From Escherichia coli (lineage in GTDB: Bacteria; Pseudomonadota; Gammaproteobacteria; Enterobacterales; Enterobacteriaceae), in the NCBI GenBank assembly GCA_029351405.1, contig GCA_029351405.1_4841.1: DNA of 64,000 bases; one strand, given 5' to 3'. Below, piece by piece: positions 4,337 through 35,376 of this stretch (the stretch's first letter is position 1; every line of letters starts with the position of its first letter). A program made the translations under genes and the position numbers. The notes under the pieces are model-generated. The model was not told the origin of the DNA, did not search any database, and saw only the letters and a list, made by a program, of their open reading frames with translations.

Positions 4337-6619
4337 TTATACAACACAGCTATCGCACTGAGTTTCCTCAGCCTGTTTCAACTCTTCGTCTTCCTTGGCG
4401 TCCTTGTTTGTGTTGTAATACAGAGTCTTGCCACCCCACATATAGAATGACAGGATATCCTGCATCATCTTGGCACGAGGGATCTTGCTGTCAGGGTACT
4501 TCTCTGGGTCATACCACGTGTTGGTACTGATGGACTGGTCAACCCAGCGCTGGATGACAGCAGCGGTCTTCAGGTACTCAATACAGTCCAGATCCCACTT
4601 GAGGTCATACATCGGTCCAAGGGTCTCAACGTCCGGGACGACCTGCTTATAAGTGCCGTCCTTGCTACCCTTGATGCTCACCAAGCCCTTCGGTGGCTCA
4701 ATGCCGTTCGTTGCGTTGAGGACCTGTGAGGAGCTTTCGGTAGGGGCTACTGCCAGCAGGGTAGCGTTGCGGATACCATAGGTCTTCAGATTATCCTTCA
4801 ACTCATCCCAATCCAGCCCATATGCCATGCCTTCCGGCTTCTTGCCATTTGGTAGGATATCAAGTGGAAGAGGCTGAAGGTCGGCGGTGACCTGCCCATT
4901 ATTGTGGATGGTTCCGCGTTTACACGCCCCGAACTTCATAGCCAGACGGTTGGATGCCTTGACCAGATAGAAGTGCAGGTGTGCCATCCACGTATCCAGC
5001 ATTTCAAGACCAGCTGGTGAGCCATAGCCCGTGAAGTTCTTGGCCAAGAAGTGAGCCACGTTCACGATACCAACACCCAGAGGACGATAGTCTTCAACAG
5101 CTTTACGAGCCTGAATCGCTGGATAGTCCTGATATTCCAACAGCATGTCCAGCGCAGACACCAACACGAACGCAACGTCTTCCATTTCCGTAGGATCTTC
5201 GAACGCCGTCAGGTTAAAGGAAGCTAGGGTGCACAGAGCCACGCGCCCGTTTTCATCGTTGTACTGCTCAAACTCACGGGTCGGCAGGGCGATTTCTAAA
5301 CAAAGATTTGAAGAATAAATCGTGTCTAGGTTGAATGGACTGTATTCATTCATGTGATCGACAAATGCGATGTAGATGCGGCCTGTGTCTGAACGCTGGT
5401 CTAACAGCATCTGGAACACCTCTTCTGCCTGCAACTTTTTAGCACGAACCAAACCAGCATCAGCGGCCTTGATCATGTTCTCATACAGAGTACGGAACTT
5501 GTCAACGTCAGCGAAGTATGCTTCATACATTTCGCGGTTGTCTTTCGGGTCGAACAGATACAGAGGCTGCTTGGCAACAAGGCGCTCAAACATCACGCGG
5601 TTGATCTGAATGCCATAGTCGATACGGCGTTCGCGGTTTTCTTCAGTACCACGGTTGTTCTTCAGAACAACGACGTCATCGAACTGGTAATGCCACAGAG
5701 GGATGTATGCTGTTGCTGCACCACCACGAATGCCGCCCTGAGAGCACGATTTGAGTGCCCCAGTGAGATACTTGATGAACGGGATCAGGCCTGTGTGAAC
5801 CATCTCTCCGCCGCGAATAGGACTACCAATCCCACGGATTGCCCCGACGTCGAAGCCGATACCCGCACGTTTGGAGACATAGTCAACGATGGTCTTGGCT
5901 GTTGCGTTGATAGAGTTCAGGGTGTCATCAGTCTTGATTAACACACAGGAACTGAACTGACGAGTAGGAGTACGAACACCTGCCATAATCGGGGTGGGAA
6001 GACTGAACTTGCCTGTGCTGGCATATTCATAGAACTTTTTCACCATCTCCAGGCGGCTGTCTTTGTCCCAGTTAGAGAACAACGCCATGGCTATGCCCAT
6101 GTACATGACCTGTGGGGTTTCGTAGAAGATCTTGCTGTCTTTCTTGGAACGGTCGCGCAACAGGTACTTCTCAGTCAGCTGACCCATGGCCGCCCACGTG
6201 AAGTTCTTATCGCGTTTGTGATTGATGACATCGTTCAGCTCGTTGAACTCTTCGGTCGTGTAGAGATCAAGGAACTCACGATCATACACGCGCTGTTTGA
6301 TGTTCTTGACGAAGATGTCCAGCAGGTGAGGCGGCTTGTACTGACCGTAGACAGCCTTGCGCAGATCATACGACTTCAGACGAGCAGCCACATACTGGTA
6401 ATTGGGTTTGTCTACAGAGATCAGTGAAGCTGCAGCCTGGATGAGGATATCCTGAATGCGATCTGTTCTCATGTTGTCGGTGAACTGAATCTTCGATGCA
6501 GCGATCACCTCTGACATTGACACACCAGACAGGCCATCACATGCGCGGTCTACGACTGCGTGTAGTTTCTCAATATCAAATGGGACAGAAGATCCGTCAC
6601 GTTTTATAACGTTAATCAT
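4337..6619 (-). CDS. nrdA: ribonucleotide reductase class Ia alpha subunit
   Basis: 760 aa; N-terminal ATP-cone-like region and R1 length; SD GAGGAA. Confidence 0.95.
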   Translation of the reverse strand: MINVIKRDGSSVPFDIEKLHAVVDRACDGLSGVSMSEVIAASKIQFTDNMRTDRIQDILIQAAASLISVDKPNYQYVAARLKSYDLRKAVYGQYKPPHLLDIFVKNIKQRVYDREFLDLYTTEEFNELNDVINHKRDKNFTWAAMGQLTEKYLLRDRSKKDSKIFYETPQVMYMGIAMALFSNWDKDSRLEMVKKFYEYASTGKFSLPTPIMAGVRTPTRQFSSCVLIKTDDTLNSINATAKTIVDYVSKRAGIGFDVGAIRGIGSPIRGGEMVHTGLIPFIKYLTGALKSCSQGGIRGGAATAYIPLWHYQFDDVVVLKNNRGTEENRERRIDYGIQINRVMFERLVAKQPLYLFDPKDNREMYEAYFADVDKFRTLYENMIKAADAGLVRAKKLQAEEVFQMLLDQRSDTGRIYIAFVDHMNEYSPFNLDTIYSSNLCLEIALPTREFEQYNDENGRVALCTLASFNLTAFEDPTEMEDVAFVLVSALDMLLEYQDYPAIQARKAVEDYRPLGVGIVNVAHFLAKNFTGYGSPAGLEMLDTWMAHLHFYLVKASNRLAMKFGACKRGTIHNNGQVTADLQPLPLDILPNGKKPEGMAYGLDWDELKDNLKTYGIRNATLLAVAPTESSSQVLNATNGIEPPKGLVSIKGSKDGTYKQVVPDVETLGPMYDLKWDLDCIEYLKTAAVIQRWVDQSISTNTWYDPEKYPDSKIPRAKMMQDILSFYMWGGKTLYYNTNKDAKEDEELKQAEETQCDSCVV

Positions 6620-31545: not shown

Positions 31546-31574
31546 ATAATAGGACATTCCTTAGAGGAAGTAAA
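31546..31574 (-). promoter_or_regulatory. early sigma70-like promoter (GTTTACT-17-TATTAT)
   Basis: Hexamers with 17-nt spacer immediately 3' of the terminator hairpin (PeSL architecture). Confidence 0.5.
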
Positions 31575-31590
31575 CCCCTAAAAGTAAAAA

Positions 31591-31610
31591 TCCCCAACGT
31601 TTGTTGGGGA
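31591..31610 (-). terminator. rho-independent terminator ending the vWA / ACP-like operon
   Basis: tccccaac / gttgggga 8-bp stem followed by UUUUUACUUUU on the minus strand. Confidence 0.55.
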
Positions 31611-31616
31611 CTTCTG

Positions 31617-31940
31617 TTATTTGCGCAGGGCAACTACGAGTTCAGCGAGTTCACCCATGGTCGGGTCATCACCTTTACTGCCCAGCCAACCATCGTCGAT
31701 TTCGACCTGAAACTCTTCTTCGAGGTCCATTACAATTTCGATAGCGTCCAGTTCATCACCGCCGAGGTCTTTCTTGGTACGGAGGCCAGCCAGCTTGTCC
31801 AGGGCGTCCTCGTTCTGAGATGCCACGTCGTCCAGCAATTTGCGCTTGTCATCGTCACGCCACAGATCCAAGTTCAGATTGTCAGTGGCGTACTGAGCCA
31901 GATGACGCATGACTTCAACATATGTTGGTTTGCTGCTCAT
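31617..31940 (-). CDS. acyl-carrier-protein-like protein lacking the phosphopantetheine serine (DSL replaced by DEL)
   Basis: 107 aa; DLGGDELDAIEIVMDLEEEFQVEI aligns with the E. coli ACP core [34 protein letters not shown]. Confidence 0.65.
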   Translation of the reverse strand: MSSKPTYVEVMRHLAQYATDNLNLDLWRDDDKRKLLDDVASQNEDALDKLAGLRTKKDLGGDELDAIEIVMDLEEEFQVEIDDGWLGSKGDDPTMGELAELVVALRK

Positions 31941-31982
31941 GCTACTTCTCCCAAAGAATGGCGGGTTGCCCCGCCCGTTGGA

Positions 31983-34184
31983 TTAGATTTTGATTTCTTT
32001 CTCTGTCAGTTCGGCAGTGACCTTGTACTTCACCCCATCCACTTCAACTTCCATGGTGGACTCTTCCAGGTCGAGGTCGGTGAACCAGCCATGACCAGCA
32101 ACGATACCATACACCACTTTAGACAGCGTCTTGTTCAGGGCGCGGACTTCGGTGATGGCCGCCTTGGTAGCAGCGTCGATCCAGTTTTCGATCAGCTGTT
32201 TCTGTAGGGCTTCAGGCACGGCAGTGATCATAGGAGACTTCACAAATGCTTCGTACTCTTTCAGAGCATTGGCGATGAACAAGTCACCAGCATTGAGTTT
32301 CTTGTTCTCGGCGATCTTCTTCTGTACTGCCGCGATGCTCGGTAGTGAAGATGCCCCGGCGATCTTAACGTTCAGCTCACGGCTCATGTAGACGTCCGTG
32401 GAGTCCTTCAGTTCGGTCTTCGGTGAGAAGCCGTAATCGCGGATGCCGTAGGAGGACAGGAACTCGGCCGCCTCAGCGCCGTACTGTACTGCCAGGCCTT
32501 TGGCGTTACCCTTACCAACCAGGGCGTCTCGATAGAACTTCAGTACCTTCTGCTTGCCTTTCAGGGCTTCCAGGCGGACATTATCCGCAAAGAACTGAGC
32601 AGCACTGATGTTCTTGACCATGGCGCGGTTGACCAGCGGTACGCTTTCCAGGTTCAGGATGAACACTTCCGGACCACCAAACACGTGGACGCCCATTTCG
32701 ATCAGCTTCTGTACAACTTCGATATCAGCCTTGAACGGCAGAGTCTTCACGTTAATGATACCGTCTTTGACGATGGTGTAGTTGCGCCACTGGAAAGTAT
32801 CCAGTTCTTCAGGCAGGCCAAACTTCTTCTGTGCGAATTCAGGCACAGCCACAGTACCGTGTTGAATTGTACGCACACTGATGTTCGGGCGCTCGGAGTT
32901 ATAGACCAAATCGCTGATTGGCACAACACCCAGGTCGTTGGTAGGTTCGAACGTCGGGTTCCACTCTTCGTGTTCTGCCAGCTTGAGAGCCAGGGCTTTA
33001 CGCTCTTCTTTGGACTGAGCATTCGCGATCTGTTCTGCCAGCTTGTCTTCGGTGTCGTCGGTTTTCTGCACAGTACCGCGCCCGATACTCTTATAGGAGA
33101 ACATCGGATGCTTGGTAGCAACAGGCACACCAGCTTCAGCCAGGTACGTCAGCACATCAACGACGGTTGTCGCATCTTCAGCCGGAACCATGTCATAGTC
33201 AATACCGTCAACGCCGCGCAGCTGGTCATCAACAATCGCCTGAACCAGATCGTTCTTGATGTTGGAGTAGTCCTGCTTGGTGAAGCAGTTGCTGTACTGT
33301 TTGATGAAGCGAACGTCGCCCGTCTTCTTCAGCGCAGCCCAAACCAGATCTGCGTCCATAGTGTGTACGCCGTAGAACGCCAGCACGTATGCCGCCTGGA
33401 TGTCCGTCAGGCTATCCATCTGGTCGATCATGTTAGGGTTTACAACCCACAGCTTGGTGACGCTCTCAGGGATGCTCACATAGCCGACCGGGTGAGAGTC
33501 ATCGTCCTGTACCGCCAGCACTGTTGCCACACCGTTTTCGACGTAGATTGCATGGGTGTAGATGACTGGGACATCAACTTTCACCTTCGGCACTGATGAC
33601 TTCAGCACGTTTTCCAGTTCGTTCTGGTATTCGGTCTGACCTTCGGCAAACACGTGAGTAGCACCGGAGCGTTCGGCCATCTGCGCCAGCAGTTCGCGGT
33701 TACAGTACCAGCCGTATTCGATAAATGTAATGTTATCGAAAGCAAATGGCAGGGTCTCAGCAACCAGTAAGATTTCGTTGGTACGCCAGCAGTTGTCATA
33801 ACCATCGGTCATGAATGCCAGGTTGTTGACGTAGCCAGGTTTCTTCAGGTCACGCGCAGTATCCATCGCCAGTTTCAATGGCTCAACGAAACCAGTACAG
33901 CCGGATGGTTGCAGGAAACGGTCGATCAGTTTGTTCAGCTCGCTCAGGTCAGATGCGACACCGATCTGACGCCCGGCAAATACCGTTCCGAAATCACCGC
34001 GAGATGAAAAGTAAAGGATGCTCACAGTATCTTCGGGTTTCACCAGGGAAGGTAGGTTCTCCTTCAGATGCTTACGGACTTCTGGAAGTGAACGATACAT
34101 GGAACCGGAGATATCCACAACGATTACATGGTTAGACGGCGCGACGGTCGCAACCGCATTCTTAAATGTTAATGATTCAATCAT
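31983..34184 (-). CDS. von Willebrand factor A domain protein
   Basis: 733 aa from the ATG at 34184; MIDAS-like VVDISGSM ... FMTDGYDN. Confidence 0.7.
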   Translation of the reverse strand: MIESLTFKNAVATVAPSNHVIVVDISGSMYRSLPEVRKHLKENLPSLVKPEDTVSILYFSSRGDFGTVFAGRQIGVASDLSELNKLIDRFLQPSGCTGFVEPLKLAMDTARDLKKPGYVNNLAFMTDGYDNCWRTNEILLVAETLPFAFDNITFIEYGWYCNRELLAQMAERSGATHVFAEGQTEYQNELENVLKSSVPKVKVDVPVIYTHAIYVENGVATVLAVQDDDSHPVGYVSIPESVTKLWVVNPNMIDQMDSLTDIQAAYVLAFYGVHTMDADLVWAALKKTGDVRFIKQYSNCFTKQDYSNIKNDLVQAIVDDQLRGVDGIDYDMVPAEDATTVVDVLTYLAEAGVPVATKHPMFSYKSIGRGTVQKTDDTEDKLAEQIANAQSKEERKALALKLAEHEEWNPTFEPTNDLGVVPISDLVYNSERPNISVRTIQHGTVAVPEFAQKKFGLPEELDTFQWRNYTIVKDGIINVKTLPFKADIEVVQKLIEMGVHVFGGPEVFILNLESVPLVNRAMVKNISAAQFFADNVRLEALKGKQKVLKFYRDALVGKGNAKGLAVQYGAEAAEFLSSYGIRDYGFSPKTELKDSTDVYMSRELNVKIAGASSLPSIAAVQKKIAENKKLNAGDLFIANALKEYEAFVKSPMITAVPEALQKQLIENWIDAATKAAITEVRALNKTLSKVVYGIVAGHGWFTDLDLEESTMEVEVDGVKYKVTAELTEKEIKI

Positions 34185-34353
34185 CGTTTTGACCTTTTTG
34201 GGCTTTGGAGTGTTTGGAGTTCGCGTCGGCGTTCTCCAGCATAGTTTCAATGAAATCCCGGTTGTTTTCCATTTGGGCGACCAGAACATCACTGGGGCGG
34301 AATGATTTGTCAAGACAATCAAGTCCGGCGCGTTTTAATTTGTTGTCGGTCAT
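34177..34353 (-). CDS. small hypothetical protein
   Basis: 58 aa from the ATG at 34353; overlaps the vWA start; first gene after the promoter at 34402-34429. Confidence 0.4.
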   Translation of the reverse strand: MTDNKLKRAGLDCLDKSFRPSDVLVAQMENNRDFIETMLENADANSKHSKAQKGQNDD

Positions 34354-34401
34354 CAGGCTCTCGTGAGTTATATTTCCCAACTATTTCAACATGGAACTAT
34401 T

Positions 34402-34429
34402 ATATTACGACAGGCGGTATTGATGTCAA
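34402..34429 (-). promoter_or_regulatory. sigma70-type promoter (TTGACA-16-TAATAT)
   Basis: Consensus -35 on the minus strand in a 150-bp AT-rich intergenic region upstream of the vWA / ACP-like operon. Confidence 0.45.
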
Positions 34430-34503: not shown

Positions 34504-35376
34504 TTATTTAAAGGAGTCTACAATGGATTTGAAAATATAATCTTTGGAGCGCTGTTGTACCGGGAGTTCTCCATACGGAACCATGCAAGGGTGTTGTTTG
34601 GTCTGAGGGTCTTTGACTGGGCCATACACCCAACCCTCAGACTCCTTCTCCGCCATCCATCTCTCATGCGATTCGCTGGGCTTACGATCACCAGTGAGGT
34701 GGAAGATAACACCTTTGCAAGCGCTCTCACGTTGCCAGGCCGGAGATTGTTCCCAAGGCAGTTGAGAGTCGTCACCAACAGACTTACAGTATGCGCGGTT
34801 GGCTTCATGACAAATCTTGGCGATGCGCAGAACCAATGGCGAATAAGTGAGATCGAGTTTGGAGTTGGCGCGCAGGAAATCACTAACAGTCTTACGAGAT
34901 TTGGCGTTATGAGATTCAACAACAAGTTCCATGTCATCCGGCCCACAAACGAAAGACGCCAAGAAGCGCTCACCATTTTCCGCTCTGAACGTCACGTCCT
35001 GAATCATCACATTGAAGCCGAGGTGATAGGCCGGATAGAGGGCGCTACGTTCAACAGCGTATTGATCGATCCGGATCTCTGCCGTTTCCGTGGCTTTGGC
35101 CAACAGATCTTGTTCAACAAGCGCCCGGTACGTCTCGAGCTGCCACAGCTGGTCGAAGGTATTATTGTAGGAAATCTCTTTGCCCAGGGCTTCATCGAAG
35201 TTGGCAGGGTCTATGGATGTGCTGGGCTTGGTGCCGTGAACGACGAAGCCGTTATCCATCTTGAAATGACAAGTGATAGCCCGGTGACCGCCGACTTCGC
35301 GGTCTTCGTAAATCACCTCAGCGATATGTGACTTCAGGACTTCAGGAGTGAGTTTTATGCCAGTACGAGTTGTCAT
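34504..35376 (-). CDS. RyR-domain protein
   Basis: 290 aa; C-terminal ...HERWMAEKESEGWVYGPVKDPQTKQHPCMVPYGELP matches the RyR-domain consensus; SD AGGATAA. Confidence 0.65.
   Translation of the reverse strand: MTTRTGIKLTPEVLKSHIAEVIYEDREVGGHRAITCHFKMDNGFVVHGTKPSTSIDPANFDEALGKEISYNNTFDQLWQLETYRALVEQDLLAKATETAEIRIDQYAVERSALYPAYHLGFNVMIQDVTFRAENGERFLASFVCGPDDMELVVESHNAKSRKTVSDFLRANSKLDLTYSPLVLRIAKICHEANRAYCKSVGDDSQLPWEQSPAWQRESACKGVIFHLTGDRKPSESHERWMAEKESEGWVYGPVKDPQTKQHPCMVPYGELPVQQRSKDYIFKSIVDSFK

Follow-up and report, generated by a model that had tools for sequence, protein, structure and literature searches.

A family of phage acyl carrier protein look-alikes with a carboxylate in place of the phosphopantetheine serine and a possible role in mimicking the ACP docking surface

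In Escherichia coli, the acyl carrier protein (ACP) AcpP holds its phosphopantetheine arm on Ser36. From established ACP biochemistry, the holo-ACP synthase AcpS and the apo-ACP-sensitive glycerol-3-phosphate acyltransferase step would be expected to recognize ACP without this arm, and the structural roles of the mitochondrial ACP require the arm in its acylated form. AcpP has more than 35 partners, and variants of it that cannot be modified are toxic to E. coli through the accumulation of apo-ACP (PMC10607373). For one partner, IscS, a 2026 study has shown that AcpP residues D35 and D38 are needed for binding and that binding is lost in the S36T variant (PMC13343975). Phages carry genes annotated as ACPs as well, and the gene described here belongs to such a family, which is already known and named in the databases, under a name that is misleading.

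The gene is located in a stretch of 64,000 nucleotides (the window) from an assembly filed under E. coli (GCA_029351405.1), which is the DNA of an Ackermannviridae phage of the Vi01/CBA120/Det7 group. The region is approximately 95% identical to Salmonella phage vB_CECAV_050 and the Escherichia phages PC3 and PH4, and it is syntenic with Det7, Marshall, CBA120, Vi01 and the Dickeya phage LIMEstone1. The coding sequence of the Ser-less ACP-fold protein occupies positions 31617-31940 of the complementary strand (ATG at 31940, TAA at 31617-31619), with a ribosome-binding site, GGGAGAAG, at 31945-31952 on the same strand, 5 nt upstream of the ATG. The product is 107 amino acids long, contains no cysteine, and has a pI of 4.2, compared to 4.05 for AcpP. 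Its stretch DLGGDELDAIEIVMDLEEEFQVEI could be aligned to E. coli AcpP without gaps, with 16 of 24 residues identical, and this alignment places Glu63 (codon GAA at 31752-31754, complementary strand), at the N-terminus of helix II, opposite the phosphopantetheine serine Ser36. The original prediction had read from the sequence a likeness to the ACP helix II core in which the invariant serine is replaced by glutamate, and the alignment bears this out.

A profile search and a structure prediction had been proposed with the original prediction as ways to check it; the curated profiles were divided, and the model pointed to an ACP. The Pfam PP-binding domain (PF00550) scored 24.8 bits, which passes the gathering cut-off of 20.8, and PHROG 4154, named 'acyl carrier protein', matched with an E value of 6.8e-57, residues 1-107 lying on profile positions 1-108 of 108. 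PF14573 stayed below its cut-off (27.4 versus 32), and the NCBIfam ACP equivalog model TIGR00517 far below (33.7 versus 70.45 bits). The best sequence matches in the PDB were all ACPs, with a lowest E value of 1.6e-5, and when 1.84 billion representative proteins were searched with the family profile, ordinary ACPs came up by the hundreds. An AlphaFold2 model, for which 24 homologues served as input (mean pLDDT 78.8), contains helices at residues 63-77, 83-88 and 95-105, the first of which begins exactly at Glu63. The best 50 Foldseek matches of this model in the PDB were nearly all ACPs, with target-normalized TM-scores of at most 0.82, and two type II polyketide synthase ACP chains and one type II peptidyl carrier protein were among them; a non-ACP fold was not seen in this comparison. 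The likeness of the protein to ACPs is not due to chance. The position of helix I can be read in two ways. By sequence alignment, the canonical helix I falls on a variable segment, at around residues 26-45, which makes a helix at residues 7-21 an N-terminal addition. In the Foldseek alignments, targets of 75-80 residues are spread over 94-103 columns, and this is compatible, too, with helix 7-21 itself as helix I, in which case the variable segment in the model would fit a loop insertion between helices I and II.

The exchange of the serine is found throughout the family. Of the 24 aligned cluster representatives, 22 have Glu and 2 have Asp at the position of AcpP Ser36; Asp is also the residue in orf142 of CBA120, and the most divergent relatives, with 33-48% identity, all have one or the other. 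No Ser occurs at position 63 among the family members read, down to 33% identity, so that the predicted Ser-to-Glu change withstood the comparison with homologues, and the family alignment shows no other conserved Ser anywhere in the protein. In the same search, the serine of the D-S-L motif was kept in 44 of the 46 ACP-like genes of other viral contigs in which the motif was readable. Judged from the aligned sequences, the replacement of the serine by a carboxylate, Glu or, in some phages, Asp, is permanent and family-wide. The original prediction had further claimed that the protein cannot be charged with phosphopantetheine, and this stands as well, since there is no Ser at the attachment site, which makes phosphopantetheinylation and acyl carriage impossible, and no other conserved Ser. 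The protein is best described as a pseudo-ACP, with an ACP fold and a docking helix preserved under strong selection, in which the cofactor site has become a fixed negative charge. Because the attachment serine was looked for and is absent, acyl carrier protein is not an appropriate classification for it.

The enzymes that normally accompany an ACP were not found either. In the complete genome of CBA120, no phosphopantetheinyl transferase (PPTase), ketosynthase, acyltransferase or other ACP-using enzyme is annotated, a count in which hypothetical proteins could hide one, and no ACP-dependent enzyme or PPTase was detected among the window neighbours scanned with Pfam. With the serine lost, partner enzymes lacking from the CBA120 annotation and a highly variable central segment, the gene might be taken for the decaying remnant of a once-functional phage ACP that has no present function. 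However, every one of the 271 phage records with the gene has an intact, full-length copy, the dN/dS of 0.03-0.24 shows that the gene is under purifying selection, ten residues remain invariant down to 33% identity, and the replacement residue is itself conserved as Glu or Asp. In addition, one peptide of the look-alike has been detected by mass spectrometry in a preparation of a Vi01-like phage (PMC10892097). A functionless relic is contradicted by the conservation data and is strongly disfavored; we consider it the least probable of all readings discussed here.

The conserved carboxylate could also mean that the protein is still a carrier, with its cargo on the Glu/Asp side chain or on another residue. 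There is precedent for this in LysW, an amino-group carrier protein that holds its substrate on a glutamate side chain, and Ackermannviridae-type phages are known for an unusual metabolism that includes hypermodified DNA bases. In the family, the attachment position is strictly a carboxylate and never a neutral residue. However, Glu and Asp interchange freely, which would be unusual for a site of covalent attachment, the CBA120 annotation contains neither an ATP-grasp ligase nor another enzyme that might load the protein, and there is no conserved enzyme neighbour common to the different genomic contexts. We therefore regard a carrier function as very improbable.

Conservation in the family is strongest on the helix with which ACPs dock onto their partners. 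Down to 33% identity, ten residues are invariant (Y7, D62, L64, I67, E68, M71, E74, D83, D91 and P93), and in the same divergent set V10, D58, D65, E76, I81 and W85 are nearly so; E75 is nearly invariant among 24 closer homologues. D62, L64, D65, E68, M71, E74-E76 and D83 are the counterparts of D35, L37, D38, E41, M44, E47-E49 and D56 of AcpP. Asp62 together with helix II (residues 63-77), the acidic recognition helix, is encoded at 31710-31757 on the complementary strand, helix limits that follow from the model. That the acidic helix recognized by ACP partners has been kept, as originally predicted, is thus supported by helix II contact residues that are invariant or nearly invariant.

Other conserved parts are peculiar to the family. 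Compared to canonical ACPs, there are approximately 30 extra residues at the N-terminus, which include the conserved helix 7-21, and the alignment shows a motif, G..DDPT, in an insertion of 3-4 residues before the last helix (DDPT, residues 91-94, at 31659-31670 on the complementary strand, ahead of helix IV). This insertion is common to both Ser-less subclades, that of the window and a second one found in metagenome contigs, and is absent from canonical ACPs. Given such elements, the protein could serve a phage or host complex as structural adaptor or chaperone-like subunit and bind through helix 7-21, W85 and G..DDPT, not by ACP-type docking. The family-specific invariant residues outside helix II (Y7, V10, W85, D91 and P93) and the shared DDPT insertion speak for this, and many of the matching ACPs of solved structure belong, as structural subunits, to complex I or the cysteine desulfurase complex. 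On the other hand, it is still the ACP docking helix that is conserved most strongly, the different genomic contexts have no conserved partner gene in common, and in roles of this kind the mitochondrial ACP needs its acyl-phosphopantetheine arm. An adaptor function is for these reasons unlikely, although not to be dismissed as readily as a carrier function.

The central part of the protein is hypervariable. In residues 24-47 (31800-31871, complementary strand), the amino-acid identity between the window and two related loci (L009 and L010) is only 26-35%, whereas the flanks are 95-100% identical, and the synonymous divergence is also higher in this segment than in the flanks. This pattern of allele differences points to recombinational replacement, with residues 24-47 probably being swapped as a cassette.

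Directly upstream of the look-alike, at 31983-34184 on the complementary strand, lies the gene for a vWA protein of 733 amino acids (PHROG 2426) with the MIDAS residues D24-x-S26-x-S28, T97 and D127, all of which are invariant in 60 diverse vWA homologues. Its model (pLDDT 88) resembles in the first ~290 residues proteins composed of a vWA domain and a beta-sandwich, such as 4fx5, archaeal ArnB and ITIH, and the conserved C-terminal ~440 residues gave no informative match for the model. The modeled vWA and beta-sandwich head also resembles the Sec23/24 trunk. In all 22 Ackermannviridae-type loci, the vWA gene ends approximately 40-45 nt before the start of the ACP-like gene (42 nt in the window). 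A vWA-sized gene is directly upstream in the further contigs L097-L100 as well; the contigs carrying the divergent family members P0041, P0044, P0045 and P0047 have this arrangement.

According to the original prediction, the look-alike is the last gene of an operon with the vWA protein and has its own terminator. The second part is correct for the window: an intrinsic terminator, TCCCCAAC-AAAC-GTTGGGGA followed by TTTTTACTTTT, is located at 31580-31610 on the complementary strand (stem at 31591-31610 plus the T-run). A terminator is present at this 3' end in most of the 22 loci and absent from five Klebsiella/Serratia-type loci (L016 and L018-L021); it is annotated in the LIMEstone1 record, and terminators are annotated in the region of Marshall and Maynard. 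The first part, a common operon, is called into question by a terminator-like hairpin between the two genes and by their incongruent histories. The hairpin, GGCGGG-GCAA-CCCGCC followed by ATTCTTT, came up in a terminator scan at 31960-31975 on the complementary strand, in the gap between the vWA stop and the ACP-like start. It is GC-rich and kept in 22 of 22 loci with different stems (GGCGGG/CCCGCC, GCCGGG/CCCGGC or GGGGGCG/CGCCCCC), and may attenuate transcription into the ACP-like gene or stabilize the vWA transcript. In a T4-like phage that lacks the ACP look-alike, the vWA gene is also directly followed by an annotated terminator. As for the histories, identities to the window for the vWA and the ACP-like protein are 83% versus 93% in L008, 94% versus 78% in L010, and 80% versus 36% in L002, which indicates that the two genes have been exchanged independently. 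In contig L097, the ACP-like protein is ~33% identical to that of the window and the vWA protein 72%, and from such comparisons the ACP-like protein appears to diverge much faster than its neighbour.

The surroundings of the two genes contain further signals. A small ORF at 34177-34380 on the complementary strand overlaps the vWA start codon by 8 nt, which suggests that it is translationally coupled with the vWA gene. An overlap of this kind, with a small ORF of ~58-67 amino acids, is also present in CBA120 (orf145/orf143) and in divergent contigs. Upstream of the small ORF and the vWA gene, at 34402-34429 on the complementary strand, there is a sigma-70-like promoter match (TTGACA, 16 nt, TAATAT), called by its agreement with the consensus only. 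Another promoter-like sequence, TTTACT, 17 nt, TATTAT, follows directly after the terminator of the ACP-like gene at 31546-31574 on the complementary strand, and its part 'GGTTTACTTC' is kept in nearly all loci, including those without the terminator. This second sequence suggests that the region is divided into a series of short transcription units of the early type. At 34504-35376 on the complementary strand, a protein of 290 amino acids is encoded with an N4 gp49/Sf6 gp66-family domain and a RyR domain, and its alleles in related phages fall into two sharp classes, with either ~97% or ~40-47% identity to the window. None of the PADLOC defense models matched the look-alike, the vWA protein or three neighbours.

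The constant vWA neighbour raises the possibility of a partner encoded by the phage itself. In integrin ligands, an Asp or Glu completes the metal coordination of the MIDAS, and by analogy the look-alike could be a ligand or regulatory partner of the vWA protein, with the exposed carboxylate at position 63 completing the MIDAS and helix II docking onto the vWA domain. The position of the vWA gene directly upstream in 22 of 22 loci and in contigs L097-L100, and the invariance of the MIDAS residues in the 60 homologues, are in line with this, and so is the tolerance of both Glu and Asp at position 63, as expected of a metal ligand. Moreover, the mass spectrometry data set with the one detection of the look-alike (PMC10892097) also has a single detection of the vWA protein. 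However, 504 phage records hold a member of the vWA family, compared to 271 for the look-alike, and the family extends to Straboviridae and to Bacillus and Rhizobium phages, where no ACP-like ORF was found near the vWA gene in the four loci inspected. Conversely, Ser-less look-alikes of the same clade occur in contigs without a called vWA gene. The incongruent identities of both genes in L008, L010 and L002 and the conserved hairpin between them also argue against a joint function, and since all cases of adjacency come from one syntenic phage family, the adjacency itself is weak evidence. We consider a vWA partner about as doubtful as the adaptor function.

The Ser-less look-alikes outside this phage group form a second subclade, which was found in GC-rich, phage-like metagenome contigs (L090 at 6001-6297, L091, L004 at 936-1223, L089 at 1825-2085 and L092 at 310-576). 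These proteins have DEL or DDL at the attachment motif, a G..DDP-type motif in four of the five cases, and no N-terminal extension. Their neighbours are ThyX, HNH and unknown proteins, with no vWA protein among the called genes, and each of the genes overlaps the gene downstream of it, which is conserved inside the respective subgroup and encodes either a 198-aa 'VWLVWSNEHTAWWR' protein or a 116-aa protein. Among the neighbours in these other phage contigs, no partner gene was shared across the Ser-less subgroups or with the window. Six metagenome representatives (P0097, P0105, P0108, P0125, P0150 and P0163) are ACP-domain proteins that likewise have DEL or DDL for DSL, and at their N-termini are what appear to be signal peptides or lipoprotein boxes; if so, they would be exported ACP-fold proteins beyond the reach of phosphopantetheinylation. 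Since Ser-less forms turn up in unrelated phage contigs and, as predicted lipoproteins, in metagenomes, there may be a wider class of ACP-fold proteins that are not carriers, of which the literature searched gave no description.

Among phages with the gene, nearly all of the 271 records are filed under Salmonella, Klebsiella, Escherichia, Dickeya, Shigella, Serratia or Enterobacter, and in most of them the annotation reads 'acyl carrier protein'. A lead that seemed to connect phage infection with the host acpP gene, a point mutation in Klebsiella acpP in bacteria that escaped a cocktail of phages cp34 and mtp5 (PMC10433977), was dropped as evidence because cp34 is absent from all 44 Klebsiella phage records with the gene; cp16, cp18, cp19 and cp21 are among these 44.

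A function that would make use of the docking helix, and needs no cofactor, is the imitation of an ACP. We tentatively propose that the look-alike, working as a stand-alone protein, imitates the ACP docking surface and is directed at an ACP-binding protein of the host, a reading that we find quite possible, short of calling it probable. The pseudo-ACP would act by protein-protein binding: taken for host AcpP, it would fill the basic site at which a host protein docks ACP, trapping this protein in a dead-end complex. Since the S36T variant of AcpP has lost IscS binding, the likeliest targets would be ACP binders that do not need the phosphopantetheine arm, for example AcpS or the apo-ACP-sensitive glycerol-3-phosphate acyltransferase step, and the negative charge at position 63 might imitate the phosphodiester of holo-ACP. 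We infer these two targets, and the role of the carboxylate, from what is known of ACP. The outcome would be a slower synthesis of host lipids and envelope during infection. We likewise infer the binding to a host target, the identity of this target and the consequence for the cell.

Several observations support the proposed mimicry. The sequence comparison shows a docking surface that is kept while Ser36 is lost, and hence surface without activity, as a mimic should have; the Ser-less clade recurs in unrelated phages with different neighbours; and unmodifiable AcpP is toxic. The presence of such look-alikes in unrelated contigs with different neighbours fits a target that is common to many bacteria. 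In favour of the mimicry we also count the need for D35 and D38 when AcpP binds IscS, the purifying selection on the gene and the peptide detected, the CBA120 annotation with its lack of a PPTase or ACP-dependent enzyme, and the faster divergence of the look-alike compared to the vWA protein, together with its swapped segment. The toxicity of unmodifiable AcpP variants through apo-ACP accumulation also makes plausible the original suggestion of a decoy for host enzymes of fatty-acid or lipid A synthesis, within limits, since IscS is a partner that loses its binding upon the S36T exchange and many host partners may thus not bind the look-alike. There are points against mimicry as well. The best sequence matches are ACPs of Bacillus and other organisms and not specifically enterobacterial AcpP, so that there is no sign of a mimic tailored to the host. 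The constant adjacency to the vWA gene in Ackermannviridae leaves a phage-internal partner open, and the N-terminal extension and the DDPT insertion, which are absent from real ACPs, may define a different binding surface.

In the full-text literature on Ackermannviridae/Kuttervirus ACP, phage ACP and apo-ACP, we came across no publication in which the missing serine is noted or the protein is tested; this literature, together with Ackermannviridae transcriptomes, yielded annotation-level mentions and no data on expression timing. Since the protein cannot be a carrier, the label 'acyl carrier protein' on most of the 271 records is functionally wrong. Should the protein prove to imitate host ACP, phages would possess in it a small natural inhibitor of a bacterial hub that is both essential and universally conserved and that serves the synthesis of lipids, lipid A, biotin and lipoate. 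It would then also be a new type of phage host-takeover factor, and its binding partner would show which ACP interaction is the most vulnerable. Biocontrol and therapy already make use of such phages, against Salmonella, E. coli O157, Klebsiella and Dickeya. A more far-reaching idea is that the ACP fold has been converted either to a carboxylate-based carrier, with an amine cargo as in LysW, or to a module that plugs a metal site, be it the MIDAS of the neighbouring vWA protein or the site for Mg2+ in host AcpS; in both cases, the invariant Glu or Asp where the serine used to be would do the work. We give this very little chance, and if true it would establish a new class, by function, of carrier-protein derivatives that is distributed across phages. 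The mechanism put forward here is a proposal, and it offers a clear hypothesis that should be cheap to test.

Compared to AcpP and other type II ACPs, the phage protein has the same helical bundle fold and the same D-x-L-D...E...M...EEEF arrangement in the helix II region, and is likewise small and acidic. It differs in being ~30 residues longer, in its variable segment and G..DDPT insertion, and in having Glu or Asp for Ser, and no PPTase or fatty-acid synthesis genes are annotated in the related CBA120 genome. Canonical phage ACPs, for example PHROG 5934 and those of Olleya phage Harreka_1 and Caulobacter phage phiCbK, are also small phage-encoded ACP-fold proteins, but most other ACP-like genes of viral contigs keep D-S-L (the 44 of 46 mentioned above), which the family described here never does. 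The mitochondrial ACP (NDUFAB1/ACPM), which functions in complex I and with ISD11-NFS1, shows that an ACP fold can be used in assembly, and it is among both the sequence and the fold matches of the phage protein; however, it has retained the serine, and the acyl-phosphopantetheine arm takes part in the interface, whereas the phage protein has no arm. LysW resembles the phage protein as a small acidic protein in which a carboxylate side chain is the functional group, but its fold is unrelated and the glutamate that it uses is C-terminal, and for the phage protein no loading enzyme was seen. The closest functional analogues of the proposed mechanism are apo-ACP and the Ser36 mutants of AcpP, in which helix II is kept and cofactor carriage is lost. 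These are laboratory variants of a host protein, whereas the phage protein is a natural and diverged one, with a charged residue at the cofactor site and with extra elements of its own.
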